Positions 1 to 64,000 of a stretch of DNA of 64,000 nucleotides are shown in pieces (positions within the stretch are counted from its first letter, which is position 1; each line of letters starts with the position of its first letter). The notes under the pieces were generated by a model, which saw only the letters and a list, made by a program, of their open reading frames with translations, had not been told where the DNA came from and searched no databases. The position numbers and the translations under genes are program-made. This DNA comes from an uncultured Thiomicrospira sp. GTDB lineage: Bacteria; Pseudomonadota; Gammaproteobacteria; CAKMZV01. The DNA lies in assembly GCA_965195345.1 (NCBI GenBank), contig OZ239628.1, positions 768,001 to 832,000 on the forward strand, read 5' to 3'.

Positions 1-3000
1 CTTCTACCAATCAGATTATGCTTACCTCCGTTGCTAATGCCAACGGCACAGCTACACTTACAGTAAGCATTGTTGATAGTGGAAATCTCTCCGCTTCCAC
101 CGAAGTGGTGGTGATTGTCAACGCCGTCAATGATACGCCCACACTTACCTTTTCAACCACTCAACTTAGTCTAAATGCAAATTTCATGCCTCAGACAATA
201 GCAACAGCAACAGACGTTGATGATGCTTCCTTGCTCCTAACCTTTGCACTATCTGCAACCGATGTAGTACAAATAACGACGGTTGCTAATCGGTTTATAT
301 TAAATCCTATCACTAATGCTTTTGGCGACACAACTATCACCCTTGCAGTATCTGATGATGATGGTGCACGCTCTTCTTCTCAAATTTTCACAGTGCGCGT
401 TAATGCGCCCATTGCATCGACAACGCCTACGTTAGCTTTATCAACGCAGAACATCACTTTAGATGAAGACTTTGGTACTTTTATTATCAACACCACTGCA
501 ACCGATGCAGAAGATGGGACATTGTCAGTAACCGTATCTGGACAGGCTGGCTTACTAACCACTAATGCTACTACTGATCAAATTACGCTCACTTCCGTTG
601 CCGATGCTAATGGAACAGTTACGCTCAATGTGCGTGCTGTTGACAGTGGTGATCTTGCAGCCTCCACCGAAGTGGTGGTAATTATCAATGCCGTCAATGA
701 TAGTCCTACATTGACGCTATCAACAACTAACCTCAGCCTCAGTGAAGATTTTGGCACATTCATCATCAACACCACTGCAAGTGATGCAGAAGACGGAGCG
801 TTATTAGTGACCGTATCTGGACAGGCTGGCTTACTAACCACTAATGCTACTACTGATCAAATTACGCTCACTTCCATTGCCAATGTCAATGGAACAACCA
901 CACTCACTGTAAGTGCCACCGATAGTGACGCTATTACAGTCTCCACGGAAGTGATTGTTGTTGTCAATGCCGTCAATGATAGTCCTACATTGACGCTATC
1001 AACAACTAACCTTAGCCTCAGTGAAGATTTTGGCACTTTCATCATCAACACCACTGCAAGTGATGCAGAAGATGGTGTATTGTCTTTTACAGTATCTGGT
1101 CAAGATGCAAGTCTATTAACAGTTAGCACTTCTATCAATCAGATAATACTTACTTCTGTTGCTAATGCCAACGGAACAGTCACACTCACTGTAAGTGCTA
1201 CCGATAGTGATGCTCGTACAGTTACCACCGAAGTGGCTATCACCATCAACGCCATCAACGATACTCCGACATTGACTCTTGCTACAACAAATATTACCAT
1301 CGTTGAAAATGCCACTGCTCGTCAAACCATTTCCATTACTGATGTGGCGGATGTTGAGGGAAGCACACTTACTTTTTCAGTCATTGCCTCCACTTCTGTG
1401 TTTAGTAGTAATCCTACATCTGTAGTCTCCTTTTCAGACACAAGAATGATAACCTTCAGTAGACAAAGTACGACTGCTCAACTCTATTACACTCTACGAC
1501 CTGATAGCACAGGCACTGGCTTCATTCAAATTGCTCTAACAGATGGAATAGACACACAGGTTACAACTGTTACCGTGACTGTGACAGAAGTTAAAAATCC
1601 GCCCCAAATCACTCAAGACTTTAGAACACATCGCTTCTTTGATGCTCGTGCAACACGTGTAGGCGCTGTTGGAGGTGTCTTATTTGCAGCACGGGGTGTA
1701 TTCACTGGGTCGCTTGTATCAAGCTCAACAGATGGTACAGGGGATTTTAGCAATCAATTAAACTTTGCTCGCTCCTTAGGAGGGAGTTTGGCAGAACTGT
1801 ACACTGAGGAAACATACAATGCTTTATTGGGTTCTGTTTTGGTTGCTAATGGCGCTGCAACAGTAGGCTTTGATGATGATCGTTTTTGGCTTGGGCTCAC
1901 TGAAATACCCAATACTTTTGGCGCTTCTGTGCCAGATCAATCAGCATCAGATGATCGTTATTTTTGGTTATCTGGTCAACGGGTGTCACAAGGATTAGGC
2001 GCTGCTCGTGTAGACGTCCCAGGAGTATACATAGGTTGGGGGGCATCCGCCCCAGGTTCAGGTAGTCAGCCATGTGCGGATCTGATTCTTGGTGAAGAAG
2101 TGCCTGTAGGGTTCAGACCTTGGGCAAATGAAAGATGCGATGGATCGTCATTTGCTTTTTTCGATGCTCTAAAAGCGTTGATGCAGTTCCCAAATGGCTT
2201 ACCTACTACCTCCTCAATGGTTTTTCAAGCAAGGTCAGTAATCACACGTATTCGTTTAAGTGGTTATGATCTTGATGGTTCAGATAATGCACTATCTTGG
2301 CAAGTCACCGATGCATCTGGCGGTAGTATCACCACTTCCACGGTTTATAGCAGTACTGGCGCACAAACCTTAGAGATTGCTTACACCCCTGTGAGCAACT
2401 TTTCAGGCACTGCCACCCTTGTTGTAAGCTTAGATGATGGCGATAGTGCTACACAAAATAGTACTGCTCGTGTATTGGTGGTTAATAGCACACCGACTTT
2501 AACACTCTCAACCAATGCTGTCAGCTTAGATGAAGACTTTACCAGCTTCGTCATTAACACCACTGCAAGCAATGCAGCAGGGATAATTGACTTTAGTGTT
2601 AGCACAGGAAATGGCATTGTTCTTGTAACCACCTCTGCTAATGCAATTACACTGCAATCACTTCCGAATATAAATGGTACTGTAACCTTAACAGTCGTTG
2701 CGAGTAGTGGTCTTTTGACAGATACACAGACGATTAGCGTTGTGGTTAATCCAGTCAACGACACCCCCACGCTGTCTTTATCTGTGACGCAAAGGGTGCT
2801 TGCTCAAAACTTTGGCACTTTCGTCATCAACACCACTGCAACCGATGTGGAATCAGGCACATTGGGCTTTAGTGTCAGTACAGGTAATGGTATTGTCAAT
2901 GTAACCACCTCTGTCAATACGATTACTCTGCAATCACTCGCCAATGTCACAGGCGATGTGACGTTAACGGTTAGCGTAAGCGATGGACTATTGACGACGA

Positions 3001-5360
3001 CACAGTCCATTTTTATAACCGTTAGCAGGGCGGTGACGCTTGAAATATCCACAAATACTATTGTTTTAGATGAAGATTTTAATACCTTCATTATTAACAC
3101 CACTGCAACGGTTGCAGATGGGTCTACATTACCTATTTCAGTATTGCAGAGCACGCCTAATCTACTTGCATTTAGCACCATAACTGGGCGCATTACCCTT
3201 TCATCTATTGCGAATGCTAATGGAGTAACAACCCTTACCGTCAGTGCAACCAATCAAGGTGGATTAACGAACACGACAGAAGTGGCCATTACCATTAATT
3301 CCATTAATGATACTCCCACGCTCAGTTTATCAAATACAAACTTAACCTTGGCACCTAATAGCACTGGTTTGATAACTGCCTTTGGTGCGGATGTGGAAAC
3401 AAGCAGTGCCTCATTGGTCTATTCGGTGCAACAAAATCCATCTTTGTTACAAGTGAGTACACAAGGCAATGTCATCGTGCTGAGATCGAGTGCTACTGCA
3501 GGCTCGACCACTTTAGTGATAACCGTTACTGATGGCGGTAACTTAAGTGCTTCAGCAACCGCTCGAGTTACTGTTCTCTCTAATGTTTTGAATTTCGCGT
3601 TAAATGTTAAACGCATTGATTTTTCTTGGAATACATCCCTTACAGCAAATCATTACCGCATGCTTAGCAATGTCGATTTGAATGCTGGTGGTGGTTTTGT
3701 TGATGCCAGTAGCGCAAGTTTGGTGTTTGTACCGAATAGTACGAACATTATCAATACTACAGTCTCTGCGATAGTGGATGTAGCACGCTATCTTTCTACG
3801 GCTAATGGACCACAGTATCTGCTAGAAGCTTGTAGTAGTGTGGATAATTCAGCCTGTGCTAATCATGCACTACAAACTTTGAGCAATGCCCAGTTAGAAG
3901 GGTTGATTGGTTACTTCAAAGCATCTAACACAGGGGGTAGTGATCAATTTGGCACAGCTCTAGCAATAAGTGGTGATGGCAACACATTAGTTGTCGGTGC
4001 ACCATTTGAGGACAGCACCGCCACTGGCATCAACGGCGATGAAGTAAATAATAATTCAACTAACACTGGTGCGGTCTATGTTTTTGTGCGTAGTAGTACG
4101 GGCAGCTGGCGTCAACAAGCCTACGTCAAAGCCTCTAATACAGAAGCCAATGACCGGTTTGGTACAGCTGTATCGATAAGCGATAATGGTAATACGCTAA
4201 TTGTTGGTGCATTTGGGGAGGACAGCACCGCCACGGGCATCAACGGCGATCAATTAGATAATTCTGCAAGTGACTCTGGTGCAGCCTATGTTTTTGTACG
4301 CAACAGTGCCGGCACATGGAGTCAACAAGCCTATCTCAAAGCATCTAATACAGGAGCTGGAGATGAGTTTGGCCGAGGTGTTTCAATTAGTGGTGATGGT
4401 AACACACTGCTCATTAGCTCAATTGGAGAAGACAGCAATGCCACGGGTATCAACGGTGATCAAACAAACAATTCTACAAGTAACTCTGGTGCAGCTTATG
4501 TTTTTGTGCGCAGTAGTACAGATTCATCATGGAGCCAGCAAGCCTACATCAAAGCTTCCAATACAGACGCAGGTGATAGTTTTAGCTCAGCTGTATCGGT
4601 GAGTGATGATGGTAATACTTTAGTTATTGGGGCATCTTTTGAAGACAGCACCGCCACGGGCATTAACGGCGATCAAACAACTAATAGTGCAAGTGCATCT
4701 GGTGCAGCCTATGTTTTTGTACGCAGTAGTACAGATTCATCATGGAGTCAACAAGCCTACCTAAAAGCATCAAATACAGGTGTTAATGATCAATTTGGTA
4801 TAGCTGTATCAGTGAGTGATGATGGTAATACGCTTGTAGTCGGTGCATTATTTGAGGACAGCACTGCTACTGGCATTAATGGTAATCAAACAAGTAGTGG
4901 TGCAAATGATTCTGGTGCGGCCTATCTTTTTGTGCGCAGCAGCACGGGCACGTGGAGTCAACAAGCCTACATCAAAGCCTCTAATACACAGGGTGGTGAT
5001 ACATTTGGTAATTATGTGGCAATAAGCGGTGATGGTAATACGTTTGTAGTCAGTGCACCGAATGAGGACAGCAATGCCACGGGTATAAACGGTGATCAAG
5101 GCAATGTGAGCGGTTTGTCTAACTTCGGTGCAGCCTATCTCTTTGTGCGCAGCAGCACGGGTACATGGAGTCAACAAGCCTATGTCAAAGGCATAAATCT
5201 TGACGGATTCTTCGGTAGTTTATTAAGTAGTGTGTCGATGAGTGATGATGGTAAAACGCTTGCTACCGGTGCACCTAATGACGGACATTCTGCACGTGGT
5301 ATCAATGGTGGTCCAATAGACAATAATGCAGGCAGCTCTGGTGCGGTGTATTTATATTAG
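1..5360 (+). CDS. Giant adhesin-like protein, 5'-truncated by the window (cadherin-like repeats, C-type lectin-like domain, FnIII-like domain, 7-blade FG-GAP propeller)
   Basis: Frame is open from the window edge (tct acc aat cag att ATG at 18), so the Met at 18 is internal. Contains NAVNDxP repeats, an FWLGLT..YFWLSG..C..W..C module and seven KASN..FG..GAP repeats ending GAVYLY. Confidence 0.93.
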   Translation, partial: STNQIMLTSVANANGTATLTVSIVDSGNLSASTEVVVIVNAVNDTPTLTFSTTQLSLNANFMPQTIATATDVDDASLLLTFALSATDVVQITTVANRFILNPITNAFGDTTITLAVSDDDGARSSSQIFTVRVNAPIASTTPTLALSTQNITLDEDFGTFIINTTATDAEDGTLSVTVSGQAGLLTTNATTDQITLTSVADANGTVTLNVRAVDSGDLAASTEVVVIINAVNDSPTLTLSTTNLSLSEDFGTFIINTTASDAEDGALLVTVSGQAGLLTTNATTDQITLTSIANVNGTTTLTVSATDSDAITVSTEVIVVVNAVNDSPTLTLSTTNLSLSEDFGTFIINTTASDAEDGVLSFTVSGQDASLLTVSTSINQIILTSVANANGTVTLTVSATDSDARTVTTEVAITINAINDTPTLTLATTNITIVENATARQTISITDVADVEGSTLTFSVIASTSVFSSNPTSVVSFSDTRMITFSRQSTTAQLYYTLRPDSTGTGFIQIALTDGIDTQVTTVTVTVTEVKNPPQITQDFRTHRFFDARATRVGAVGGVLFAARGVFTGSLVSSSTDGTGDFSNQLNFARSLGGSLAELYTEETYNALLGSVLVANGAATVGFDDDRFWLGLTEIPNTFGASVPDQSASDDRYFWLSGQRVSQGLGAARVDVPGVYIGWGASAPGSGSQPCADLILGEEVPVGFRPWANERCDGSSFAFFDALKALMQFPNGLPTTSSMVFQARSVITRIRLSGYDLDGSDNALSWQVTDASGGSITTSTVYSSTGAQTLEIAYTPVSNFSGTATLVVSLDDGDSATQNSTARVLVVNSTPTLTLSTNAVSLDEDFTSFVINTTASNAAGIIDFSVSTGNGIVLVTTSANAITLQSLPNINGTVTLTVVASSGLLTDTQTISVVVNPVNDTPTLSLSVTQRVLAQNFGTFVINTTATDVESGTLGFSVSTGNGIVNVTTSVNTITLQSLANVTGDVTLTVSVSDGLLTTTQSIFITVSRAVTLEISTNTIVLDEDFNTFIINTTATVADGSTLPISVLQSTPNLLAFSTITGRITLSSIANANGVTTLTVSATNQGGLTNTTEVAITINSINDTPTLSLSNTNLTLAPNSTGLITAFGADVETSSASLVYSVQQNPSLLQVSTQGNVIVLRSSATAGSTTLVITVTDGGNLSASATARVTVLSNVLNFALNVKRIDFSWNTSLTANHYRMLSNVDLNAGGGFVDASSASLVFVPNSTNIINTTVSAIVDVARYLSTANGPQYLLEACSSVDNSACANHALQTLSNAQLEGLIGYFKASNTGGSDQFGTALAISGDGNTLVVGAPFEDSTATGINGDEVNNNSTNTGAVYVFVRSSTGSWRQQAYVKASNTEANDRFGTAVSISDNGNTLIVGAFGEDSTATGINGDQLDNSASDSGAAYVFVRNSAGTWSQQAYLKASNTGAGDEFGRGVSISGDGNTLLISSIGEDSNATGINGDQTNNSTSNSGAAYVFVRSSTDSSWSQQAYIKASNTDAGDSFSSAVSVSDDGNTLVIGASFEDSTATGINGDQTTNSASASGAAYVFVRSSTDSSWSQQAYLKASNTGVNDQFGIAVSVSDDGNTLVVGALFEDSTATGINGNQTSSGANDSGAAYLFVRSSTGTWSQQAYIKASNTQGGDTFGNYVAISGDGNTFVVSAPNEDSNATGINGDQGNVSGLSNFGAAYLFVRSSTGTWSQQAYVKGINLDGFFGSLLSSVSMSDDGKTLATGAPNDGHSARGINGGPIDNNAGSSGAVYLY
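1740..2195 (+). other. C-type lectin-like domain, copy 1 (approximate bounds)
   Basis: ARSLGGSLAEL..FWLGLTE..YFWLSG..YIGWGASAPG..PCADL..WANERC..ALMQF matches the CTLD motif order. Confidence 0.75.
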
Positions 5361-5607
5361 AATTTAAATAGCTAAAGGGCAACTAAATTTGCTTGATTAA
5401 TCCTGCCATTATGTATTCATCAGGCAGACAGGAATGCAGCTTTTCTGCTTAACGTTTATTGCTTTAAATGTTATAAACTGCTTGCATGTTTTCTCATGCT
5501 TTAATTTATAGTAAATCAAGTGTCACAGTTCAAAATATGAGCTTCTATCTCATACATAAACTGTAGTGAAATTTTAATTGCATAATTGAGTACATAAGGT
5601 GAATGAT
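5361..5607 (+). promoter_or_regulatory. Conserved intergenic spacer, type A leader
   Basis: Homologous to the other spacers. TTGCAT(5482)-N19-TATAGT(5507), hairpin TATGAG-N7-CTCATA, SD AAGGTGA before ATG 5608. Confidence 0.55.
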
Positions 5608-5849
5608 ATGCGGTATATAAAGCGCTGGGCATTTCTGTTGTTGTTTGTTTTTCTGTCTGCCTGCGGTGGCGGTGGTGGTACAACACCTCCATCTACTAAT
5701 ACAGCGCCAAGTTTAAGTCTCTCTGCCAACGCCGTAACGCTTGATGAAGATTTTGGCACCTTTATCGTCAACACCACTGCCACCGATGCAGAAGATGGAA
5801 TGTTGCCTTTTACAGTATCTAATCAAGATGCCAGTCTATTCGCCATCAC

Positions 5850-6161
5850 GCTTCTGAAGTTGAGAAGGGTCATGAGGAAGAAGTAGTTATCGCAGCTATT
5901 GAAGAGATGACTGATAAGACTAATGATGAGATTGTAGCTACATGGAAAGCTAATGGTCTATCAGATGGTATCGTTGATTATATTGTTAAGCATTCAACAC
6001 CATCAGTAATGATTGATCTAGTATTCATCACACATCTATTCACATGTATTAGATGTAGTCATAGTTTCAGTAAAGGCTTTCTTCAAGGCTGGATTTCAGA
6101 AACTAATTGTACTAAATGTTATAACAACTATGTTATTAATGAAAGTTTAAAAGGAAAATAA
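5850..6161 (+). CDS. Hypothetical protein, probably 5'-truncated; C-terminal CxxC-x17-CxxC (possible Zn ribbon)
   Basis: Frame is open from the insertion boundary (ASEVEKGHEEE..), 19 codons before ATG 5907. CIRC...CTKC motif. Stop is adjacent to the next ATG. Confidence 0.45.
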   Translation, partial: ASEVEKGHEEEVVIAAIEEMTDKTNDEIVATWKANGLSDGIVDYIVKHSTPSVMIDLVFITHLFTCIRCSHSFSKGFLQGWISETNCTKCYNNYVINESLKGK

Positions 6162-6162
6162 A

Positions 6163-6540
6163 ATGAACACATTATATATTGACGTCCGTATTGACGAAGA
6201 CTTCAACCTAGACCCTCGGATGGTATTTGATTCAGTTCGTATCAAGCACACAGAGATTGACAAGTATCTTCCTCTATTGCGTGGCAAGAAAGTTATTGTC
6301 ATCTGTCAGGCAGGTCTCAAGCTAAGTCAAGGTACTGCTGGTATCTTGAACGCTCATGGTATTGACGCCACTCATCTAGTAGGTGGTTTCATTGGTATTG
6401 AAGATAAAGATGGTATGGAAGAAGCTCCAACTTATGAGTATGTAGCAGCAGCAGAAGGTACTGATGTTGATACTGATAAGTTAGTAGCATATGTAGATGA
6501 AGATCAGGTTGATCTTGTAACAGAAAAGTTTGGATGGTAG
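6163..6540 (+). CDS. Rhodanese-like domain protein resembling the N-terminal domain of ChrB-type sulfurtransferase/chromate-resistance proteins
   Basis: IDVRIDEDF..DPR..VIVICQAGLKLSQG..L..GI.A.HLVGGF motif pattern; SD AAGGA upstream. Confidence 0.8.
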   Translation: MNTLYIDVRIDEDFNLDPRMVFDSVRIKHTEIDKYLPLLRGKKVIVICQAGLKLSQGTAGILNAHGIDATHLVGGFIGIEDKDGMEEAPTYEYVAAAEGTDVDTDKLVAYVDEDQVDLVTEKFGW

Positions 6541-6541
6541 A

Positions 6542-7108
6542 ATGATTGAACTAGTATTATTCCTATTGTTTATTATCGGTACTCCTGGTCCTGCTAATAT
6601 GATTTCAATGTTAGCTGCTACTGAGTCTGGTCTAAAGCAGACACTCAAGATGGTAGCAGGTATCGCTGTAGGTCTTGCGTTTCTTAGTGTAGTAGTAGGA
6701 TTAGGCTTCTCTACTATCCAGCAGTATCCTAATGTAGTCTTAGCCATGAAGCTAATCAGTGCTGGCTATATGATTTGGTTGTCTATCCAGGCTTGGAGAG
6801 GTAATGGTCATGCTCTACATGTAGAGAAGTATACATTCGTCAAAGGTCTATTCATTCAGCCTCTAAATCCTAAGGCTTGGGTATTCACTATCTTGGCTTG
6901 GAGCACATATTCAGCTGGCGTTAGTGCTGATGTTATGTGGCAGTTTGTAGGTGTAACAGCAGCATTGATGGGTGTGACATTTACTTCACAATCAACATAT
7001 GCTGTAGCTGGTTCATTGATGAACAGAGTTATGTCTAAGAGTCGTACACTTACTCGTGTATTGGTTGTAATGAATGTAGCTGTAGTTCTTTGGGCACTGA
7101 CACTCTAG
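6542..7108 (+). CDS. LysE/RhtB family amino-acid efflux translocator
   Basis: TPGPAN and LNPKAW motifs, ~6 hydrophobic segments, ~190 aa. ATG at 6542 lies just after the rhodanese stop. Confidence 0.9.
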   Translation: MIELVLFLLFIIGTPGPANMISMLAATESGLKQTLKMVAGIAVGLAFLSVVVGLGFSTIQQYPNVVLAMKLISAGYMIWLSIQAWRGNGHALHVEKYTFVKGLFIQPLNPKAWVFTILAWSTYSAGVSADVMWQFVGVTAALMGVTFTSQSTYAVAGSLMNRVMSKSRTLTRVLVVMNVAVVLWALTL

Positions 7109-7258
7109 AGAGGATTGTATGATTACCTCTACCAATCAGATTATGCTTACCTCCGTTGCTAATGCCAACGGCATAGCTACACTTACAGTAAGCATTGTTG
7201 ATAGTGGAAATCTCTCCGCTTCCACCGAAGTGGTGGTGATTGTCAATGCCATTAATGA

Positions 7259-7384
7259 TGCATGTTTCCTCATGTTTTAATTTATAATAAATCAAGTGTC
7301 ACAGTGCAAAATATGAGCTTCTATCTCATACATAAACTGTAGTGAAATTTTAATTGCATAATTGAGTACATAAGGTGAATTGAT
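7259..7384 (+). promoter_or_regulatory. Truncated type A spacer (3' half only)
   Basis: Begins at TGCA microhomology; ATGCAT(7258)-N19-TATAAT(7283); SD AAGGTGA. Confidence 0.55.
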
Positions 7385-14083: not shown

Positions 14084-14343
14084 AATTTAAATAGCTAAAG
14101 GGCAACTAAATTTGCTTGAATTTGCTTGATTGACCCTACCACTATGTATTCATCAGGCAGACAGGAAGGCAGCTTTTCTGCTTAACGTTTATTGCTTTAA
14201 ATGTTATAAACATGCTTGTATGTTTTCTCATGCTTTAATTTATAATAAATCAAGTTGTCACAGTGCATAATATGAGCTTCTATGTCATGCATAAACTGTA
14301 GTGAAATTTTAATTACATAATTAAGCACATAAGGTGAATTGAT
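14084..14343 (+). promoter_or_regulatory. Conserved spacer, type A, with a 10-bp tandem duplication AATTTGCTTG
   Basis: TTGTAT(14216)-N19-TATAAT(14241); duplication at 14109-14128. Confidence 0.55.
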
Positions 14344-54540: not shown

Positions 54541-54787
54541 ATACGTATATAGCTAAAAGGCAATTAGAGTTGCTTGATTAACCCACCATTATGTATTCAT
54601 CAGGAGAACAGGCGCACAACTTTTTTACTTAATGTTTCGCTGTAAATGTTATGAACTGTTTGCATGTTTTCTCATGCTTTAATTTATAATGATTAGGATT
54701 GCTGGATTGTAGACATACTGCTTTTATCAAACACATAAACTGTTGTGATAATTGTGATTTCATAGTTAAAATAAAATATAGGACTAA
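54541..54787 (+). promoter_or_regulatory. Conserved spacer, type B
   Basis: TTGCAT(54660)-N19-TATAAT(54685). Confidence 0.55.
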
Positions 54788-57700
54788 ATGAAAATGAACC
54801 ATTTAAAGTGCTGGGGATTTCTATTATCACTCGTTTTTTTATCTGCCTGTGGCGGTGGGGGTGGCGGCGATTCAACACCTCCGTCTACTAATACAGCACC
54901 AAGTTTAAGTCTCTCTGTCAATGCCCTAATGCTTGATGAAGATTTTGGCACTTTTGTCATCAATACCACTGCAACCGATGCAGAAGATGGGACACTGTCC
55001 GTAACTGTATCTGGACAGGCTGGTTTGCTAACCACTGATGTCACCACTGGTCGAATTACCCTAACTTCTATTGCCAATGCTAACGGCACAACTACACTTA
55101 CTGTACGTGCTACCGATAGCGGAAACCTCTCTGCTACCACCGAAGTAGTTGTCACCATTAACGCCATCAATGATGCCCCGACATTTACTCTTGCTACAAC
55201 AAACATTACTATCGTTGAAAATGCCACTGCTCGTCAAACGATTTCCATTCCCAATGTAGTCGATGTTGACGGAAACGCACTGACCTTTTCAGTCATTGCC
55301 TCCACTTCTTTATTTAGTACTAACCCAACACCTGTTGTGTCTTTTTCAGATACAAGGGTGATAATCTCCGATACACAACCTACAGCTCAACTCTATTACA
55401 GCCTACTGCCCGACGTCACAGGCTCTGGCTTCATTCAAATTGCTTTAACAGATGGCATAGAGACCCAACGTACGACCGTTACTGTTACTGTTACAGAAGT
55501 TAGAACTCCACCCCAAATTACCCAAGACTTTAGAACACATCGCTTCTTTGATGCGCGTGCAACGCGTGTAGGCGCTGTTGGAGGTGTCTTATTTGCAGCA
55601 CGAGGTGCATTTACTGGATCGACTGAAACAACCTCAACAGATGGTACGGGGAATTTTAGTAATCAATTAAACTTTGTCCGTTCCTTAGGAGGGAGTTTAG
55701 CCGAACTTTACACTGAGGAAACATACAACGCTTTATTGGGTTCTGTTTTGGTTTCCAATGGCACTGCAACAGCAGACTTTAATGATGATCGTTTTTGGCT
55801 TGGACTCACTGATACACCCAATGCTTTTGGCGCTTCTGTGTCAGATCAATCTTCCTCATTAGAGCGTTATTTTTGGTTGTCTGGTCAGCGGGTGTCACAA
55901 GGATTAGGTATTTCTCGTATAGAAGTTCCAGGAGTGTACATAGGCTGGGGGTCATCCGCCCCAACTGCAAGCAATGAGCCCTGTGCTAATTTGATTCTTG
56001 GTGCCGAAGTATCTGCAGGGCTCAGACCTTGGGCAAGTACTGGGTGCGATGGATCATCATCTGCTACTTTCAATGTGCTAAAAGCGTTGATGCAGTTCCC
56101 AAATGGCTTACCTACTACTTCTTCAATGATTGTTCAAGCGAGGCTCCCAATCACCCGTATTCGTTTAAGTGGTTATGATCTTGATGGTTCAGATAATACA
56201 TTGTCTTGGCAAGTTACCGATGCATCTGGTGGTGGTATCACTACTTCCACAGTCTATAGCAGTACTGGCGCACAAACCTTAGAGATTTCTTACACTCCTG
56301 TGAGCGGCTTTTCAGGCACTGCGACCCTTGTTGTAAGCTTAGATGATGGTGATAGTGCTACGCAAAATAGTACTGCCCGTGTATTGGTGGTTAATAACAC
56401 ACCAACTTTAATATTTTCCACCAATACTGTCAGCTTAGATGAAGACTTTACCAGATTCGTCATTAACACCACTGCAACCGATGCAGCAGGGATAATCGAC
56501 TTTAGTGTTAGCACAGGAAACGGTATTGTTTTTGTAACCACCTCTGCTAATGCGATTACACTGCAATCACTTTCGAATATAAATGGTGCTGTAACCTTAA
56601 CAGTCGTTGCGGATAGTGGTCTTTTGACAAATACACAGACGATTAGCGTTGTGGTTAATCCAGTTAATGACACTCCCACGCTGTCTTTATCTGTGACGCA
56701 AAGGGTGCTTGCTCAAAACTTTGGCACTTTCGTCATCAACACCACTGCAACCGATGTGGATTCAGGCCCATTGGGCTTTAGTGTCAGTACAGGTAATGGC
56801 ATTGTTAATGTAACAACCTCTGTCAATACGATTACTCTGCAATCACTCGCTAATGTCATAGGCGATGTTACGTTAACGGTTAGCGTAAGCGATGGACTAT
56901 TGACGACGACACAGTCCATTTTTATAACCGTTAGTAGACCGTTTACGTTTGAAGTATCGACAAACACTATCGTTTTAGATGAAGATTTTAATACCTTCAT
57001 TATTAACACCACTGCAACGGCTGCAGATGGGACTATATTACCTATTTCAGTGGTGCAGAGCAGCTCTAACCTACTTACATTCAGCACTATAACTGGGCGC
57101 ATTACCCTTTCATCTATTGCGAATGCTAATGGAGTAACAACCCTTACCGTGAGTGCAGCTAATCAAAATGGACTAACGAACACGACAGAAGTAGCCATTA
57201 CCGTTAATTCCGTTAATGATACTCCCACACTCAGTTTATCAAGTACAGACTTAACTTTCTCACCTAATGGAACCGGTTTTATAACTGCTTTTGGTGCGGA
57301 TGTGGAAACAAGCAGTGCCTCATTGATCTATTCTGTACAACAAAACCCATCTTTGTTACAGGTGAGTACACCAGGCAATGTCATCGTACTGAGAGCGGGT
57401 GATACTACAGGCTCGACCACTTTAGTGATCACCGTTACTGATGGCGGTGGTTCAAGCGCTTCAGCAACCGCTCGAGTTACTGTTTTATCAGGTGTTTTGA
57501 ATGCTTTGAATGTAAGTTTAAATGTTAAACGCATTAACTTTTCTTGGAACACACTTCCTACAGCAAATCATTACCGCATGCTTAGCAATGTTGATTTGAA
57601 TGCTGGTGGTGGTTTTGTTGATGCCAGTAGCGCAGGCTTGGTGTTTGTACCGAATAGTACGAATATTATCAATACTACAGTCTCTGCAACAGTGGATGTA

Positions 57701-59260
57701 GCAGGCTATCTTTCTACGGCTGATGGACCACAGTACCTGCTACAAGCTTGTAGTAGTGTTGACAATTCCGCTTGTTCTAATCTTGCACAACAATCTCTGA
57801 GCAATATTCAGTTAGAGGGATTGATTGGTTATTTCAAAGCTTCTAATACAGATGCAGATGATGAATTTGGTGAGGGTGTCGCAATAAGCGGTGATGGCAA
57901 CACATTAGTTGTCGGTGCACCATTTGAGGACAGCACCGCCACTGTCATCAACGGCGATGAATCAGACAATTCTAGAAGTGACTCTGGTGCAGCCTATGTT
58001 TTCGTGCGTAGTAGTACGGGCAGCTGGCGTCAACAAGCCTATATCAAAGCCTTTGATGCACAAGCCAATGGTCAGTCTAATTCAGCTGTACCAAGGAGCA
58101 ATGATCAGTTTGGTGCAGCTGTAACAATAAGCAATGACGGTAATACTATAGTTGTTGGTGCAGAATTTAAGGATGTTGCCGCTCCTGGCGGTTCCGTTCA
58201 GCCCAACACTGGTGCAGCCTATGTTTTCGTGCGCAGTAGTACCGGCAGCTGGCGTCAACAAGCTTTCATCAGCGCTTCTAATCTAAATGCCAATGATCGG
58301 TTTGGAAGAACTGTATCGGTCGCTGCTGATGGTAATACACTCGCTGTCGGTGCACCTTTAAAAAGCGTAAATGCTCTAACTTCTGTTGGTACAGCCTATG
58401 TTTTTGTACGCAGTAGTACAGATTCATCATGGAGTGAGCAAGCTTTATTTACACCACCTACTGTAATAATTAGTAGTAATTTTGGTTCTGCTGTATCGAT
58501 GAGTGGTGATGGTAATACCATGGTCGTTGGTGCAAGTGGTGACCGAAGTAATGGCATGGGTATCAACGCTGATGAAGTCCCTACTAGTACTCCTCTTTTT
58601 AATTCTGGTGCAGCCCATGTTTTTGTACGCAGTAGTACAGATAGTACATGGAGTCGGCAAGCTTATATTAGAGCCTCAAATCCAGGTAGTACTGATCTCT
58701 TTGGTGCAGCTGTATCGATGAGTGGTGATGGTAATACCATGGTCGTTGGTGCACATCAAGAAGACAGCAATGCCACGGGAATCGGCGGGGGGCAAGGAGA
58801 TGTTAGTAATCCTAATTCAAATTTTGGTGCAGCCTATGTTTTTGTGCGCAGTAGTACGGGCACATGGAGCCAACAAGAATATATCAAAGCCTCAAATACA
58901 GGATTTGGTGATGTGTTTGGTTTTGCTGTTTCAATGCGCAGTGATGGTAATGCGTTCGTTGTTGGTGCACCATTTGAGGACAGCAATGCCACGGGAATCA
59001 ACGGGGTCCAAGGAGGTGGTGCTACTGACGCTGGTGCAGTCTATCTTTTTGTACGCAGTGGTACGACATGGCGTCAACAAGCCTACATCAAAGCCTCAAA
59101 CACAGGAGCTGATGATGAGTTTGGTGACTCTGTTTCAATAAGCAGTGATGGTAAAACGCTTGCTGTCGGTGCACCCAATGAAGATAGCAATGCCACTGGT
59201 ATCAATGGTAATCAAACAGACGATAGTCAAGATGACGCTGGTGCAGTGTATTTGTATTAG
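54788..59260 (+). CDS. Lipoprotein adhesin, 1490 aa, one CTLD, variant propeller
   Basis: Lipobox, CTLD, 7 blades with inserted loops. Confidence 0.95.
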   Translation: MKMNHLKCWGFLLSLVFLSACGGGGGGDSTPPSTNTAPSLSLSVNALMLDEDFGTFVINTTATDAEDGTLSVTVSGQAGLLTTDVTTGRITLTSIANANGTTTLTVRATDSGNLSATTEVVVTINAINDAPTFTLATTNITIVENATARQTISIPNVVDVDGNALTFSVIASTSLFSTNPTPVVSFSDTRVIISDTQPTAQLYYSLLPDVTGSGFIQIALTDGIETQRTTVTVTVTEVRTPPQITQDFRTHRFFDARATRVGAVGGVLFAARGAFTGSTETTSTDGTGNFSNQLNFVRSLGGSLAELYTEETYNALLGSVLVSNGTATADFNDDRFWLGLTDTPNAFGASVSDQSSSLERYFWLSGQRVSQGLGISRIEVPGVYIGWGSSAPTASNEPCANLILGAEVSAGLRPWASTGCDGSSSATFNVLKALMQFPNGLPTTSSMIVQARLPITRIRLSGYDLDGSDNTLSWQVTDASGGGITTSTVYSSTGAQTLEISYTPVSGFSGTATLVVSLDDGDSATQNSTARVLVVNNTPTLIFSTNTVSLDEDFTRFVINTTATDAAGIIDFSVSTGNGIVFVTTSANAITLQSLSNINGAVTLTVVADSGLLTNTQTISVVVNPVNDTPTLSLSVTQRVLAQNFGTFVINTTATDVDSGPLGFSVSTGNGIVNVTTSVNTITLQSLANVIGDVTLTVSVSDGLLTTTQSIFITVSRPFTFEVSTNTIVLDEDFNTFIINTTATAADGTILPISVVQSSSNLLTFSTITGRITLSSIANANGVTTLTVSAANQNGLTNTTEVAITVNSVNDTPTLSLSSTDLTFSPNGTGFITAFGADVETSSASLIYSVQQNPSLLQVSTPGNVIVLRAGDTTGSTTLVITVTDGGGSSASATARVTVLSGVLNALNVSLNVKRINFSWNTLPTANHYRMLSNVDLNAGGGFVDASSAGLVFVPNSTNIINTTVSATVDVAGYLSTADGPQYLLQACSSVDNSACSNLAQQSLSNIQLEGLIGYFKASNTDADDEFGEGVAISGDGNTLVVGAPFEDSTATVINGDESDNSRSDSGAAYVFVRSSTGSWRQQAYIKAFDAQANGQSNSAVPRSNDQFGAAVTISNDGNTIVVGAEFKDVAAPGGSVQPNTGAAYVFVRSSTGSWRQQAFISASNLNANDRFGRTVSVAADGNTLAVGAPLKSVNALTSVGTAYVFVRSSTDSSWSEQALFTPPTVIISSNFGSAVSMSGDGNTMVVGASGDRSNGMGINADEVPTSTPLFNSGAAHVFVRSSTDSTWSRQAYIRASNPGSTDLFGAAVSMSGDGNTMVVGAHQEDSNATGIGGGQGDVSNPNSNFGAAYVFVRSSTGTWSQQEYIKASNTGFGDVFGFAVSMRSDGNAFVVGAPFEDSNATGINGVQGGGATDAGAVYLFVRSGTTWRQQAYIKASNTGADDEFGDSVSISSDGKTLAVGAPNEDSNATGINGNQTDDSQDDAGAVYLY
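55650..56102 (+). other. C-type lectin-like domain, copy 6 (approximate bounds)
   Basis: FWLGLTD..PCANL..WASTGC. Confidence 0.75.
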
Positions 59261-59508: not shown

Positions 59509-62500
59509 ATGAAAATGAACCATTTAAAGTGCTGGGGATTTCTATTATCACTCGTTTTTTTATCTGCCTGTGGCGGTGGGGGTGGCGGCGATTCAACACC
59601 TCCGTCTACTAATACAGCACCAAGTTTAAGTCTCTCTGTCAATGCCCTAATGCTTGATGAAGATTTTGGCACTTTTGTCATCAATACCACTGCAACCGAT
59701 GCAGAAGATGGGACACTGTCCGTAACTGTATCTGGACAGGCTGGTTTGCTAACCACTGATGTCACCACTGGTCGAATTACCCTAACTTCCATTGCCAATG
59801 CTAACGGCACAGCTACACTTACTGTACGTGCTACCGATAGCGGAAACCTCTCTGCTACCACCGAAGTGGTTGTCACCATTAACGCCATCAATGATGCCCC
59901 GACATTTACTCTTGCTACAACAAACATTACTATCGTTGAAAATGCCACTGCTCGTCAAACGATTTCCATTCCCAATGTAGTCGATGTTGACGGAAACGCA
60001 CTGACCTTTTCAGTCATTGCCTCCACTTCTTTATTTAGTACTAACCCAACACCTGTTGTGTCTTTTTCAGATACAAGGGTGATAATCTCCGATACACAAC
60101 CTACAGCTCAACTCTATTACAGCCTACTGCCCGACGTCACAGGCTCTGGCTTCATTCAAATTGCTTTAACAGATGGCATAGAGACCCAACGTACGACCGT
60201 TACTGTTACTGTTACAGAAGTTAGAACTCCACCCCAAATTACCCAAGACTTTAGAACACATCGCTTCTTTGATGCGCGTGCAACGCGTGTAGGCGCTGTT
60301 GGAGGTGTCTTATTTGCAGCACGAGGTGCATTTACTGGATCGACTGAAACAACCTCAACAGATGGTACGGGGAATTTTAGTAATCAATTAAACTTTGTCC
60401 GTTCCTTAGGAGGGAGTTTAGCCGAACTTTACACTGAGGAAACATACAACGCTTTATTGGGTTCTGTTTTGGTTTCCAATGGCACTGCAACAGCAGACTT
60501 TAATGATGATCGTTTTTGGCTTGGACTCACTGATACACCCAATGCTTTTGGCGCTTCTGTGTCAGATCAATCTGCCTCAGTAGAGCGTTATTTTTGGTTG
60601 TCTGGTCAGCGGGTGTCACAAGGATTAGGTATTTCTCGTATAGAAGTTCCAGGAGTGTACATAGGCTGGGGGGCATCCGCCCCAACTGCAAGCAATCAGC
60701 CCTGTGCTAATTTGATTCTTGGTGCCGAAGTATCTGCAGGTCTCAGACCTTGGGCAAGTACTGGGTGCGATGGATCATCATCTGCTACTTTCAATGTGCT
60801 AAAAGCGTTGATGCAGTTCCCAAATGGCTTACCTACTACTTCTTCAATGATTGTTCAAGCGAGGCTCCCAATCACACGTATTCGTTTAAGTGGTTATGAT
60901 CTTGATGGTTCAGATAATACATTGTCTTGGCAAGTTACCGATGCATCTGGTGGTGGTATCACTACTTCCACAGTCTATAGCAGTACTGGCGCACAAACCT
61001 TAGAGATTTCTTACACTCCTGTGAGCGGCTTTTCAGGAACTGCGACCCTTGTTGTAAGCTTAGATGATGGTGATAGTGCTACGCAAAATAGTACTGCCCG
61101 TGTATTGGTGGTTAATAACACACCAACTTTAACACTCTCAACCAATGTTGTCAGCTTAGATGAAGACTTTACCAGCTTCGTCATTAACACCACTGCAACC
61201 GATGCAGCAGGGATAATCGACTTTAGTGTTAGCACAGGAAACGGTATTGTTTTTGTAACCACCTCTGCTAATGCGATTACACTGCAATCACTTTCGAATA
61301 TAAATGGTGCTGTAACCTTAACAGTCGTTGCGGATAGTGGTCTTTTGACAAATACACAGACGATTAGCGTTGTGGTTAATCCAGTTAACGACACTCCCAC
61401 GCTGTCTTTATCTGTGACGCAAAGGGTGCTTGCTCAAAACTTTGGCACTTTCGTCATCAACACCACTGCAACCGATGTGGATTCAGGCCCATTGGGCTTT
61501 AGTGTCAGTACAGGTAATGGCATTGTTAATGTAACAACCTCTGTCAATACGATTACTCTGCAATCACTCGCTAATGTCATAGGCGATGTGACGTTAACGG
61601 TTAGCGTAAGCGATGGACTATTGACGACGACACAGTCCATTTTTATAACCGTTAGTAGACCGTTTACGTTTGAAGTATCGACAAACACTATCGTTTTAGA
61701 TGAAGATTTTAATACCTTCATTATTAACACCACTGCAACGGCTGCAGATGGGACTATATTACCTATTTCAGTGGTGCAGAGCAGTTCTAACCTACTTACA
61801 TTCAGCACTATAACTGGGCGCATTACCCTTTCATCTATTGCGAATGCTAATGGAGTAACAACTCTTACCGTGAGTGCGGCTAATCAAAATGGACTAACGA
61901 ACACGACAGAAGTAGCGATTACCGTTAATTCCGTTAATGACACTCCCACACTCAGCTTATCAACTACAAACTTAACTTTCTCACCTAATGGAACCGGTTT
62001 TATAACTGCTTTTGGTGCGGATGTGGAAACAAGCAGTGCCTCATTGATCTATTCTGTACAACAAAATCCATCTTTGTTGCAGGTGAGTACACCAGGCAAT
62101 GTCATTGTACTGAGAGCGGATGATACTACAGGTTCGACAACTTTAGTGATAACCGTTACTGATGGCGGTGGTTCAAGCGCTTCAGCAACTGCTCGAGTTA
62201 CTGTTCTATCAGGTGTTTTGAATGCTTTGAGCGTAAGTTTAAATGTTAAACGCATTAACTTTTCTTGGAACACACTTCCTACAGCAAACCATTACCGTAT
62301 GCTTAGCAATGTCGATTTGAACGCTGGTGGTGGTTTTGTTGATGCCAGTAGCGCAGGTTTGGTGTTTATACCGAATAGCACGAATATTATCAATACTACA
62401 GTCTCTGCAACAGTGGATGTGGCACGCTATCTTTCTACGGCTGATGGACCACAGTATCTGCTGCAAGCTTGTAGTAGTGTGGACAATTTCGCTTGTTCTA

Positions 62501-63972
62501 ATCTTGCACAACAATCTCTGAGCAATATTCAGTTAGAGGGATTGATTGGTTACTTCAAAGCTTCTAATACGGAAATGGGAGATGAATTTGGTGAGGGTGT
62601 CGCAATAAGTGGTGATGGCAACACATTAGTTGTCGGTGCACCCGGAGAAGATAGCGACGCCACCGGCATCAACGGCGATGAATCAGACAATTCTAGAAGT
62701 AACTCTGGTGCAGCCTATGTTTTCGTGCGCAGTAGTACAGGCAGCTGGCGTCAACAAGCATACCTTAAAGCCTCTGATGCAGCAGATGATGATGGGTTTT
62801 CTTCAAGAGCTGTAACAATAAGCAATGACGGTAATACTATAGTTGTTGGTGCACCACGCAAGGATGTTGCCGCTCCTGGCGGTAGCCCCCAGGGCAACAC
62901 TGGTGCAGCCTATGTTTTCGTGCGCAGTAGTACCGGCAGCTGGCGTCAACAGGCTTTCATCAGCGCTTCTAATCTAAATGCCAATGATCAGTTTGGAACA
63001 GCTGTATCGGTTGCTGCTGATGGTAATACACTCGCTATCGGTGCGCCTTCAAAAACTGTACGTACTATAGATTCTATGGGTCAATCTGTGAGCAGAGCTA
63101 CTGCTGGTACAGCCTATGTTTTTGTACGCAGTAGTACAGATTCATCATGGAGTGAGCAAGCTATATTGACAGCACCTTTTGTAACGAGTTTTGCTTTTTT
63201 TGGTAATGCTGTATCGATGAGTGGTGATGGTAATACCATGGTCGTCGGTGCAGACGGTGACCAAAGTACTGGCACGGGTATCGGCAGTGATGAATCCACC
63301 ATTAATGATTTTGGTACCGGTGCTGCCCATGTTTTTGTACGTAGTAGTACGGGTAGATGGAGTCGGCAAGAATATTTTAAAGCCTCAAATGCAGAAGGTA
63401 CTGATCTCTTTGGTACAGCTGTATCGATGAGCGGTGATGGTAATACCATGGTCGTTGGTGCACCAGGGGAAGACAGCAATGCCACGGGTGTCGACGGGGA
63501 TCAAGCAAATAATGGTAGTGGTGTTAATTCAAATTCTGGTGCAGCCTATGTTTTTGTGCGCAGTAGTACGGGCACATGGACGCAAGAAGCCTATATCAAA
63601 GCCTCAAATACAGGAGATGGTGATGTGTTTGGTTCTGTTCTCTCAATGAGCAATGATGGTAATGCGTTCGTTGTTGGTGCACCAAATGAGGACAGCAATG
63701 CCACGGGAATCAACGGGGGGGAAGCAGGTGGTGCTAATAACGCTGGTGCAGTCTATCTTTTTGTGCGCAGTGGTACGACATGGCGTCAACAAGCCTATAC
63801 CAAAGCCTCAAACACAGGAGCTGATGATGCGTTTGGTGACTCTGTTTCAATAAGCAGTGATGGTAAAACGTTTGCTGTTGGCGCATCTGGCGAAAATGGC
63901 AGCGCCACTGGTATCAATGGCGATCAAACAGACGATAGTCAAGATAACGCTGGTGCAGTGTATTTGTATTAG
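59509..63972 (+). CDS. Lipoprotein adhesin, 1487 aa, recent duplicate of the 54788 gene
   Basis: Near-identical leader, stalk and CTLD at a 4721-bp offset; diverged propeller loops. Confidence 0.95.
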   Translation: MKMNHLKCWGFLLSLVFLSACGGGGGGDSTPPSTNTAPSLSLSVNALMLDEDFGTFVINTTATDAEDGTLSVTVSGQAGLLTTDVTTGRITLTSIANANGTATLTVRATDSGNLSATTEVVVTINAINDAPTFTLATTNITIVENATARQTISIPNVVDVDGNALTFSVIASTSLFSTNPTPVVSFSDTRVIISDTQPTAQLYYSLLPDVTGSGFIQIALTDGIETQRTTVTVTVTEVRTPPQITQDFRTHRFFDARATRVGAVGGVLFAARGAFTGSTETTSTDGTGNFSNQLNFVRSLGGSLAELYTEETYNALLGSVLVSNGTATADFNDDRFWLGLTDTPNAFGASVSDQSASVERYFWLSGQRVSQGLGISRIEVPGVYIGWGASAPTASNQPCANLILGAEVSAGLRPWASTGCDGSSSATFNVLKALMQFPNGLPTTSSMIVQARLPITRIRLSGYDLDGSDNTLSWQVTDASGGGITTSTVYSSTGAQTLEISYTPVSGFSGTATLVVSLDDGDSATQNSTARVLVVNNTPTLTLSTNVVSLDEDFTSFVINTTATDAAGIIDFSVSTGNGIVFVTTSANAITLQSLSNINGAVTLTVVADSGLLTNTQTISVVVNPVNDTPTLSLSVTQRVLAQNFGTFVINTTATDVDSGPLGFSVSTGNGIVNVTTSVNTITLQSLANVIGDVTLTVSVSDGLLTTTQSIFITVSRPFTFEVSTNTIVLDEDFNTFIINTTATAADGTILPISVVQSSSNLLTFSTITGRITLSSIANANGVTTLTVSAANQNGLTNTTEVAITVNSVNDTPTLSLSTTNLTFSPNGTGFITAFGADVETSSASLIYSVQQNPSLLQVSTPGNVIVLRADDTTGSTTLVITVTDGGGSSASATARVTVLSGVLNALSVSLNVKRINFSWNTLPTANHYRMLSNVDLNAGGGFVDASSAGLVFIPNSTNIINTTVSATVDVARYLSTADGPQYLLQACSSVDNFACSNLAQQSLSNIQLEGLIGYFKASNTEMGDEFGEGVAISGDGNTLVVGAPGEDSDATGINGDESDNSRSNSGAAYVFVRSSTGSWRQQAYLKASDAADDDGFSSRAVTISNDGNTIVVGAPRKDVAAPGGSPQGNTGAAYVFVRSSTGSWRQQAFISASNLNANDQFGTAVSVAADGNTLAIGAPSKTVRTIDSMGQSVSRATAGTAYVFVRSSTDSSWSEQAILTAPFVTSFAFFGNAVSMSGDGNTMVVGADGDQSTGTGIGSDESTINDFGTGAAHVFVRSSTGRWSRQEYFKASNAEGTDLFGTAVSMSGDGNTMVVGAPGEDSNATGVDGDQANNGSGVNSNSGAAYVFVRSSTGTWTQEAYIKASNTGDGDVFGSVLSMSNDGNAFVVGAPNEDSNATGINGGEAGGANNAGAVYLFVRSGTTWRQQAYTKASNTGADDAFGDSVSISSDGKTFAVGASGENGSATGINGDQTDDSQDNAGAVYLY
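60370..60823 (+). other. C-type lectin-like domain, copy 7 (approximate bounds)
   Basis: Differs from copy 6 at only a few residues. Confidence 0.75.
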
Positions 63973-64000
63973 AATACGTATATAGCTAAAAGGCAATTAG
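63973..64000 (+). repeat. Start of another conserved spacer; the array probably continues
   Basis: AATACGTATATAGCTAAAAGGCAATTAG matches the 5' ends of other spacers. Confidence 0.8.

Follow-up and report, generated by a model that had tools for sequence, protein, structure and literature searches.

What does a bacterium with a genome of 1.92 Mb gain from a locus at which long, repeat-rich lipoprotein genes follow one another head to tail for some 75 kb? The locus lies in an uncultured Thiomicrospira sp., on a genome that is a single contig (G000; 39.8% G+C, 99.7% complete), and the 64,000-nucleotide stretch analyzed here (the window) corresponds to genome positions 768,001-832,000. An earlier note on the window had described a tandem array of at least 64 kb of lipoproteins with integrin-like propellers and had proposed it as a combinatorial repertoire for surface recognition. 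The array is real and larger than the window, and on balance we favor reading it as a standing family of outer-membrane-anchored, Ca2+-stiffened lipoprotein adhesins with an integrin-like distal head, diversified by duplication, unequal crossing-over and gene conversion. Coordinates below are those of the window unless given as genome positions, and all features of the array in the window are on the + strand.

Organization of the array

The array occupies genome positions 760,714-835,648 (~75 kb), passes both edges of the window, and contains 14 intact paralogs (A01-A14, with A02-A13 inside the window) and one disrupted copy. The window holds 12 large open reading frames (ORFs), of which 11 are complete (823-2649 aa); the other, A02 (1..5360), is truncated by the 5' edge, such that the 3' 1780 codons remain of a 2244-aa gene that starts 1374 bp before the window. 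With the disrupted copy as a thirteenth, the number of paralogs (at least 13), their sizes and their common orientation are as the earlier note had given them. The G+C content of the array region is 40-47%, compared with 39.8% for the genome.

All 14 products start with a signal peptide with a lipobox, L-(S/T)-A-C, followed by 2-9 glycines, and the lipobox pattern [LVI][ASTVI][GAS]C is found both in these 14 genes and in the two genes of a second mini-array elsewhere in the genome (see below). Of the 13 gaps between array genes, 11 are 219-264 bp long, one (before A14) is 160 bp, and one (at the disrupted copy) is 2024 bp. The 13 spacers are mutually homologous, in agreement with the proposal that each gene has a spacer of its own, and because the same sequence also follows A14, the duplicated unit is a gene plus its spacer. 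Each spacer has a short hairpin after the stop codon, a terminator-like hairpin (e.g. 14167-14183 and 17403-17423), a conserved TTTAATTTATAAT element ~90 nt before the start codon, a TATAAT box and an AAGGTG-like ribosome-binding site. The spacer at 14084..14343 is typical, with AAGGTG itself as its ribosome-binding site, and that preceding A10 (48589-48852) is the most divergent.

The disrupted copy follows the spacer after A02 (5361..5598), which is homologous to the others. It begins with a 95-codon 5' stub (5599..5886) encoding the signal peptide, lipobox and two thirds of a first stalk module (type A, see below), continues with an insert of ~1.28 kb (5907..7108), in which two small ORFs have no Pfam family and a further gene encodes a LysE-type translocator (PF01810, E 1.6e-15), and ends with the rest of module A (7119..7280) fused straight to the promoter part of the next spacer, the remainder of the gene having been deleted up to the next promoter. 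The insert sits exactly within module A, and an obvious target duplication was not seen.

Stalk modules and their order

A profile hidden Markov model (HMM) of our own, iterated from the first module, recognizes 152 units of ~90-107 residues in the array, of which 138 are stalk modules (2-21 per protein) and 14 are necks. The NCBIfam tandem-95 model (NF012211) matches all three proteins tested, with 112.1 bits for A12, 63.6 for A04 and 28.3 for A10 (cut-off 90), and Big_9 (PF17963) scores above its Pfam cut-off of 23.6 bits in 7 of 12 proteins. Read in translation, the modules contain T-D-A-E-D-G and finish with N-A-(V/I)-N-D-(T/S)-P, which we take to be cadherin-like Ca2+-linker motifs (DxNDN-like). 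The stalk of cadherin-like modules in the earlier note is therefore present as a repeated module, with the Pfam cadherin models remaining below threshold; cadherin-like is used here to describe how the modules appear, and membership of the family is not claimed.

Clustering of the units at ~55% identity gives nine types, of which H is the neck, and their order is constant in all 14 genes: (A or AB)n, an optional C-[insert]-D-E, an optional E-F, G, the neck H, and the propeller. The shortest member, A10 (48853..51324; 823 aa), is simply AGH, with A11 (51574..54540; 988 aa) being AAAGH and A04 (14344..17337; 997 aa) ABAGH. The E-F block is present in A06 (22482..26021; 1179 aa; AAAEFGH) and A05 (17584..22233; 1549 aa; AABABAAEFGH), and the insert-bearing block as well in A12 (54788..59260; 1490 aa) and A13 (59509..63972; 1487 aa), both ACDEEFGH, in A01 (ABABACDEEFGH), in A07 (26265..32402; 2045 aa; AABABAACDEEFGH), and in A02 and A03 (the latter 7385..14083; 2232 aa), both ABABABAAACDEEFGH. 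The longest member, A08 (32622..40571; 2649 aa), has this cassette duplicated internally (AABACDEAABACDEEFGH). A09 (40822..48588; 2588 aa) has 21 stalk modules, AB(A)11B(A)6GH, and contains a tandem repeat (41526..46547) of 17.9 copies of a 282-bp module-coding unit with 89% matches; A14 is AAAAAIH.

The array genes thus follow a single collinear plan, from which they depart in length and by internal deletions or duplications; they are not free permutations of modules, because the module order is fixed and only the repeat number and the internal blocks differ. The interchangeable modules, and the free combinatorial shuffling that the earlier note built upon them, are not borne out.

The neck and the propeller head

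Every protein ends in a tail of ~590 residues, composed of a ~115-residue neck with two cysteines and seven ~70-residue FG-GAP_2 repeats, and terminating in ...G-A-V-Y-L-Y. PF14312 matches all 12 proteins tested in 6-7 stretches each (E 1.9e-47 to 1.9e-58, with 7.3e-53 for A02; 159.6-194.9 bits, cut-off 23), and 119 matches to the repeat are present in the genome as a whole. An AlphaFold2 model of the A12 tail (neck 57485-57820, propeller 57821-59257), built on an alignment of 37 tails from three genomes, has a pLDDT of 77.9 and a pTM of 0.80, with the propeller blocks mostly above 85, and its 27 strands in seven repeats form a seven-bladed fold. In a Foldseek comparison with the PDB the top 50 matches are all integrin alpha chains (E 3e-16 to 5e-16; target-normalized TM 0.64-0.67; 15-17% identity), and a PDB sequence search with the propeller gives 0 matches. 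Pfam, the model and the structural comparison together confirm the FG-GAP propeller.

Each blade consists of four strands (FGxxVxI, TLVVGA, GAAYVFVR and WxQQAYI). Since the alternate loops of a meander lie on alternate faces, the geometry places the long b-c loops and the d-a loops on the same face of the propeller. The hairpin of the blades, as read from an alignment, is (S/D)-x-D-G-N-T, with at most two acidic residues, and does not match the integrin-type Ca2+ hairpin, which we take to be DxDxDGxxD-like.

The neck is predicted as a 6-7-strand beta-sandwich by AlphaFold2 (pLDDT 34-81). Searches with three necks (E up to 10) gave no FnIII or other significant Pfam match in any of them, the one chance-level match being to a viral coat domain, and the label FnIII-like is therefore not confirmed beyond a beta-sandwich predicted with low to moderate confidence. 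No RTX-family Pfam match is present in the 12 proteins tested, all of which end in the last strand of the propeller. The C-termini of all 14 genes (e.g. 17314-17334) read polar-x-G-A-V-Y-L-Y, the last propeller strand, a sequence that also fits what we believe to be the C-terminal signal pattern of outer-membrane barrel proteins, perhaps by a coincidence of beta-strand periodicity.

Mosaicism and loop variation

The paralogs are clearly mosaic in segments, with the 5' end, the stalk and the head having different nearest relatives, and along the tails the nearest paralog changes from one segment to the next. A12 and A13 have the same stalk, are 95-100% identical at the nucleotide level from 250 nt upstream through ~3.1 kb, and then fall to 79-91% in the propeller. 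A01 and A05 show the opposite gradient, with 57-82% identity at the 5' end and 96-100% over the last ~2.7 kb, and differ by the whole C-insert-D block; A03 and A04 are 94-100% identical at the 5' end and differ by a deletion that removes most of the stalk. The head clades are not mirrored by the signal-peptide types, nor head relatedness by the three types of 5' region (spacer plus signal peptide). The opposite gradients indicate segmental exchange and unequal crossing-over, and the recombination or gene conversion that had been proposed is visible in these pairs. Stalk length, cassette and head vary semi-independently, which is the part of the proposed independent variation that stands.

Within the tail, mean pairwise amino acid identity is 84% for the neck, 75% for the strands, 75% for the a-b hairpins, 69% for the c-d loops, 59% for the d-a loops and 53% for the b-c loops, so that variation is concentrated in the propeller loops, as had been suggested, and the b-c and d-a loops are the fast-evolving part of the head. 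In the youngest trio (A09, A12 and A13) omega for these two loop classes is 1.55, 1.29 and 0.94, as against 0.47, 0.39 and 0.50 elsewhere in the propeller; when all 91 pairs are taken together, the respective medians are 0.49 and 0.28, with only 2 pairs above 1.

A second assembly, independent and diverged (317-kb contig), has at least 7 members of the family (P0124, P0068, P0126, P0127, P0133, P0135 and P0136) with 74-93% identity. Six of the seven fall into length classes of G000 (815/823, 1179/1171, 1485/1487, 1499/1490, 2244/2232 and 2645/2649 aa), with best identities of 77-93%; P0068 (716 aa) has no partner of the same length and is closest, at 74%, to A04. The counterparts of A10, A12 and A13 are 54-78% identical in the one-face loops and 82-92% in the core and stalk. 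Those of A03, A08 and A14 have heads conserved at 92-98% and stalks at 87-92%.

An adhesin-like anatomy and its interpretation

These features suggest a protein held by an N-terminal lipid anchor, most likely in the outer membrane because Gly occupies position +2 after the lipobox Cys, with the poly-Gly segment probably acting as a flexible tether. Beyond it extends a rod built from 2-21 cadherin-like modules of beta-sandwich type, which Ca2+ probably stiffens at the ...N-x-(V/I)-N-D-x-P linkers and which carries a lectin-like side domain in half of the genes. A conserved disulfide-containing neck then leads to the distal seven-bladed, integrin-like propeller, the putative ligand-binding head. 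Exposed at the cell surface, such a head could attach the cell to a host, a particle or another cell. Diversification would proceed in three ways: by tandem duplication of the gene and spacer unit; by unequal crossing-over between internal repeats, altering stalk length and removing or duplicating blocks with the order unchanged; and by segmental gene conversion, uncoupling the histories of the 5' end, stalk and head. Amino acid change in the head meanwhile accumulates in two loop classes on one propeller face. The anatomy, the mosaicism, the position of the variation and the occurrence of arrays across the genus are seen directly, and the outer-membrane and surface location, the stiffening by Ca2+, ligand binding by the head and the ecological role are inferred. 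With a promoter-like spacer for each gene, the array is most likely a standing repertoire, either co-expressed or individually regulated, and probably not an expression-site or phase-variation system.

Several observations weigh against this interpretation. No export route for surface exposure was identified, a search for Slam (PF04575) being empty and its control equally silent, and thus uninformative. The Pfam models Cadherin, Cadherin_4 and Cadherin_5 all score below their cut-offs in the 12 proteins tested. A generic scan finds 15 promoter-like sites compared with 19.9 in shuffled sequence, and 9 terminator-like sites compared with 7.2, and in view of this lack of excess the promoters are assigned by their conservation. 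In every pair of the youngest trio the bootstrap interval of loop omega spans 1; positive selection on the loops is accordingly not demonstrated, and with loop omega statistically indistinguishable from 1, the variation in the loops is accounted for equally well by relaxed constraint and by selection for new specificities. Lastly, a cadherin and FG-GAP protein of a sponge symbiont, CAD42, was reportedly without effect when a cyanobacterium expressing it was fed to sponges (PMC13747020).

A more ambitious interpretation, which we regard as possible but rather doubtful, sees in the array a genuine recognition repertoire, belonging to a bacterium that lives with a host or partner, with the one-face loops under diversifying selection, a graded reach, an optional lectin-like side domain invented in this lineage and reassortment driven by conversion. 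If so, gene conversion would continually reassort heads, stalks and regulatory regions such that each strain shows a different combination of specificities, and the array would be a bacterial counterpart of the eukaryotic adhesion-receptor families, with the same dynamics of birth-and-death and conversion.

Alternatively, the proteins could be a structural coat or brush, a dense layer of graded rods serving as spacer, shield or sieve against phages, grazers or host factors, in which the propellers mainly contact each other and stalk length is selected over head specificity. The amount of DNA devoted to the family (~75 kb in the array, with ORFs containing these domains adding up to 6.7% of the 1.92 Mb), the range of stalk lengths (2-21 modules, and up to 40 in the congener G001), and the three conserved heads of A03, A08 and A14 are all consistent with this. 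However, the one-face head loops are the most variable part of the tail, with the 54-78% identity seen in the three other pairs, which is unexpected for a purely structural lattice, and we consider a coat unlikely.

The lectin-like insert

The adhesin interpretation includes a side domain, a segment of ~220 residues between modules C and D that is present in 7 of the 14 genes, in eight array copies including two in A08. Insert searches place the copies in the window at 1587..2261 (A02, also by alignment), 10316..10969 (A03, also compared with Pfam and PDB), 28653..29306 (A07), 34197..34850 and 36825..37490 (A08, the second also compared with Pfam), 55496..56158 (A12, the query of the homology, Atlas and fold attempts) and 60217..60879 (A13). 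A ninth copy, 46% identical, is the only one in the genome outside the array, and lies within a 14,357-aa ORF (genome 285,556-328,629) that also has 17 stalk-type modules and is a possible donor or recipient of the lectin-like cassette. The array copies are 79-98% identical to that of A12, without a localized variable region.

The insert is probably, though not provably, a C-type-lectin-like domain (CTLD), specific to this lineage. Pfam Lectin_C (PF00059) matches two of three copies tested with E 0.043 and 0.24 (15.0 and 12.6 bits, cut-off 22.6), and the third copy has no Lectin_C match. Sequence and profile searches of the PDB give E 0.15-0.26 to mannose-receptor and GlcNAc-lectin domains (profile E 0.26 for a GlcNAc-specific lectin), with unrelated matches scoring equally. 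In an ESM Atlas feature search 25 of 30 matches are Lectin_C clusters (score 0.93), and the 156 shared features, below the 170 typical of true members, make this a lead only. An AlphaFold2 model from 9 near-identical sequences has a pLDDT of 33.6, too low for a fold search. All nine copies align at D-R-F-W-(L/I)-G, at G-W-G...P...C, and at two invariant cysteines (C173 and C194). We assume a WIGL-type core, a conserved disulfide pair and an EPN/QPD plus WND triad for Ca2+ and sugar to be the motifs of a CTLD, and the EPN/QPD-type triad is not seen on reading the nine-copy alignment. The optional domain of the earlier note is thus confirmed in half of the genes, and its identity as a CTLD is not, given the sub-threshold Lectin_C scores and the poor model.

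Relatives of the insert are scarce. A search of 1.84 billion representative proteins gave 2 matches, A01 itself and a spurious repetitive frame, and hence no credible outside relative; the non-self match (P0122) is a 949-aa Arg/Gly-rich repetitive 'protein' that looks like the wrong-frame translation of repeat DNA. Among 41 genomes there are 9 matches in G000 (the eight of the array and the one elsewhere) and one weak match in G003, and the insert was not found in the two congeners G001 and G002.

A lectin-like domain raises the question of whether the proteins capture polymers or particles for nutrition, with the modules, the lectin-like domain and the propeller binding algal or host polysaccharides and so keeping the cell attached to its food. 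The cadherin-like domains with which marine degraders of polysaccharides bind carbohydrate provide an analogy, the insert is common among the array genes, and there are weak CBM53 matches inside two propellers (E 1.3e-4 and 5.9e-3, both sub-threshold). Against this, no glycoside hydrolase, TonB-dependent receptor or transporter gene is present in or beside the array, and the lectin-like domain has no recognizable EPN/QPD motif in its alignment. A role in capture seems improbable.

Spacers and switching

The adhesins would constitute a standing family only if their expression is not switched, and programmed antigenic or phase variation, with one or a few genes turned on by promoter inversion, slipped-strand mispairing or expression-site recombination so as to evade host immunity, grazers or phages, is one alternative. 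The tandem layout of lipoprotein genes, with conserved 5' regions and variable repeats, presumably resembles that of known families of variable lipoproteins. Two local features also point this way. A 12-14-nt inverted repeat lies on either side of the promoter, the ribosome-binding site and the signal-peptide region in A04 (14154-14167 / 14386-14399), A06 (22300-22311 / 22527-22538) and A07 (26082-26093 / partner ending at 26321), pairing a spacer segment (CAGGCAGACAG) with lipobox-coding codons, and a T8 run lies between the promoter-like boxes of the A01-A02 spacer (genome 766387-766625).

Neither feature is general. The inverted repeat is confined to these 3 of 14 genes, where it could be due to chance, to RNA structure in read-through transcripts, or to a relic, and an invertible promoter was dropped as a general mechanism. 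The T8 run is in 1 of 13 spacers, the others having TGTTTTCTC. Homopolymer phase variation was likewise rejected for the poly-Gly segment of A04, the one gene whose DNA was read there, which has mixed GGT/GGC codons and no homopolymer. Silent cassettes are absent, since all 14 genes are complete, with start, signal peptide and their own promoter-like spacer with ribosome-binding site. No recombinase gene was found inside the array, and the nearest tyrosine-recombinase match is a split frame ~26 kb downstream (genome 861303-862309). Reverse transcriptase (PF00078) has no match in the 99.7%-complete genome, with the control positive in 3 genomes, and a diversity-generating retroelement is ruled out. 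We conclude that no general switch is encoded at the array; the one-on mechanism that had been entertained is not supported by these findings, and switching of this kind is quite improbable.

Related arrays in other genomes

The propeller by itself is widespread, with at least 7,999 scored matches of ~50-60% identity in many phyla, together with other stalk types such as IPT/TIG, Ig, SLH or T9SS tails; these relatives are mostly single genes. We examined 77 propeller loci from a species-level genome collection. In 15 of these, among them loci of Enhygromyxa, Microbulbifer, Salinivibrio and Salinispirillum, the match begins no later than residue 11 of the query and so covers the neck, and they are mostly single genes, with three loci having three adjacent propeller ORFs. 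The combination of a narrow neck profile, a lipobox and arrays of 10-14 genes was seen only in this genus (4 of 77 loci, all in G001 or G002).

The search of related genomes that the earlier note had called for thus found arrays of 14 and 10 genes in two genomes of the same genus, at another locus. The G001 array has 14 genes (820-4401 aa, 2-40 modules), 13 on one strand and one inverted, interspersed with a fifteenth lipobox-bearing ORF without these domains, and that of G002 has 10 genes (644-4104 aa, 0-38 modules). Both lie between a GMC oxidoreductase gene and gpsA, and synteny with the G000 locus was rejected because these flanking genes are elsewhere in G000. The G001 gaps, at ~1.2-2.2 kb, are five to eight times those of G000. 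Fragmentary but conserved ORFs occur in them on the other strand, of which one has a signal peptide and another is similar to a protease P-domain, and the unit duplicated in G001 may once have included a second gene. Each congener genome (~2.1 Mb) has more than 126 FG-GAP_2 repeat matches, and outside the arrays these extend to open frames of up to 12,231, 7,019 and 5,897 aa. Searches of two other genera in the family gave no FG-GAP_2 match.

In a quick maximum-likelihood tree of the 37 tails, all 14 from G000 form one clade (SH-aLRT 100) and 12 of 13 from G001 group together. Paralogs therefore cluster by genome, indicating independent expansion or concerted evolution within each.

These arrays also bear on the assembly. 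Four sequencing runs, from one study and with no RNA run among them, contain the stretch; their contigs mapped on 48589-59508 are only ~200-500 bp long, none spans a gene-spacer-gene junction, and their many 'joints' are as expected from cross-mapping of paralog fragments. That the array is an over-expanded or mis-joined repeat is scarcely credible, for although paralog tracts of ~2.7-3.1 kb at 95-100% identity are unresolvable by short reads and the public contigs at the locus are so short, the 14 genes are intact and distinct in sequence and module string, the genome is a single contig, two congeners have equivalent arrays, and the diverged second assembly with its 7 members, 6 in the same length classes, argues against it.

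Genome context

The array is preceded by housekeeping genes, which encode PRPP synthetase, ArgS, CysS, a porin and an aldehyde dehydrogenase. On its downstream side (genome 837368-849654) are genes for a LodA-type L-lysine epsilon-oxidase with a halogenase-like flavoprotein partner, for an LRAT-family protein, and for a protein with an SpvB domain, next to which a 1573-aa RHS-repeat protein is encoded; this cluster is accessory-looking. The second mini-array (genome 1,229,300-1,236,538, minus strand) encodes two lipoproteins built in the same way (1191 and 1093 aa), with 7 and 6 module-profile matches (neck counted), neck and propeller, and G000 has two other FG-GAP_2 proteins. The array alone is ~4% of the DNA, and because it and the related ORFs (6.7%) take up so much of a streamlined 1.9-Mb genome, with congeners being alike at a different locus, the family must be central to the life of this uncultivated gammaproteobacterial genus.

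The locus is a natural experiment in which stalk length, side domain and head are uncoupled by recombination, and since the variable residues lie on one predictable integrin-like face, head specificity is directly testable with recombinant heads. It supplies many natural variants of the widespread FG-GAP_2 propeller, for which there is no sequence-detectable solved structure, and holds a 220-aa lectin-like domain that stands apart from the representative proteins searched.

Comparison with known systems

The domains and the evolutionary processes are familiar ones, and it is the architecture, the lineage-specific insert, and the size that the arrays reach in genomes of 2 Mb that are undescribed in the full-text literature searched, where only 2 papers name PF14312. 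The earlier statement that no characterized system has this architecture holds for the array in that literature, although a protein combining cadherin and FG-GAP repeats has been published. This protein, CAD42, is the nearest published item, a 'eukaryotic-like protein' from a bacterium living in symbiosis with the sponge Cymbastela concentrica; it is reported to be highly expressed in the sponge metatranscriptome and had no effect on sponge uptake when expressed in the cytoplasm of Synechococcus (PMC13747020). CAD42 resembles the array proteins in composition, but is a single gene for which no lectin-like insert is described, and it is not an ortholog, since its cloning primers show ends unlike the lipobox start and ...VYLY end found here. 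Tandem-95, cadherin and FG-GAP domains also occur together in one 11,389-aa protein in a preprint on coral associates (10.64898/2026.08.06.743379).

A parallel in overall design is with the giant Ca2+-stiffened adhesins such as the ice-binding adhesin of Marinomonas primoryensis, in which, as reported, an anchor and a long beta-sandwich extender with Ca2+ at its linkers lead to distal ligand domains (PMC5550230, PMC7493085), the same extender-plus-tip logic as in the array proteins. Those adhesins, as described there, are single, giant RTX proteins secreted by a type 1 system, whereas the array consists of many mid-sized lipoproteins with one type of head and no RTX match. By family, the head of the array proteins belongs with PF14312 and the stalk probably with NF012211 and PF17963, and the lipobox, neck and 10-14-gene arrays set this genus apart among the 77 loci.

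The Vlp and Vsa systems of mycoplasmas likewise consist of lipoprotein genes in tandem, in which the promoter and signal-peptide regions are conserved and size varies by means of internal repeats, but their promoter homopolymer tracts, site-specific inversion and silent cassettes are not general at the array. Targets of diversity-generating retroelements are variable proteins with a C-type-lectin fold, and like these the array has a lectin-like domain on a putative surface protein with variation between copies, although there is no reverse transcriptase and no localized variable region in the insert.

The head itself is most like the integrin alpha propeller (9dia_A, 8vs6_A and 4wk0_A are among the best Foldseek matches), with which it shares seven FG-GAP blades, and its variable loop classes presumably correspond to those that form the ligand-binding face of integrins. 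It lacks a beta-subunit partner, thigh and calf legs and a transmembrane helix, differs in its low sequence identity (15-17%), and has a hairpin, S-G-D-G-N-T, from which most acidic Ca2+ ligands are gone; and here the propeller is placed at the C-terminal, distal end of a lipoprotein.

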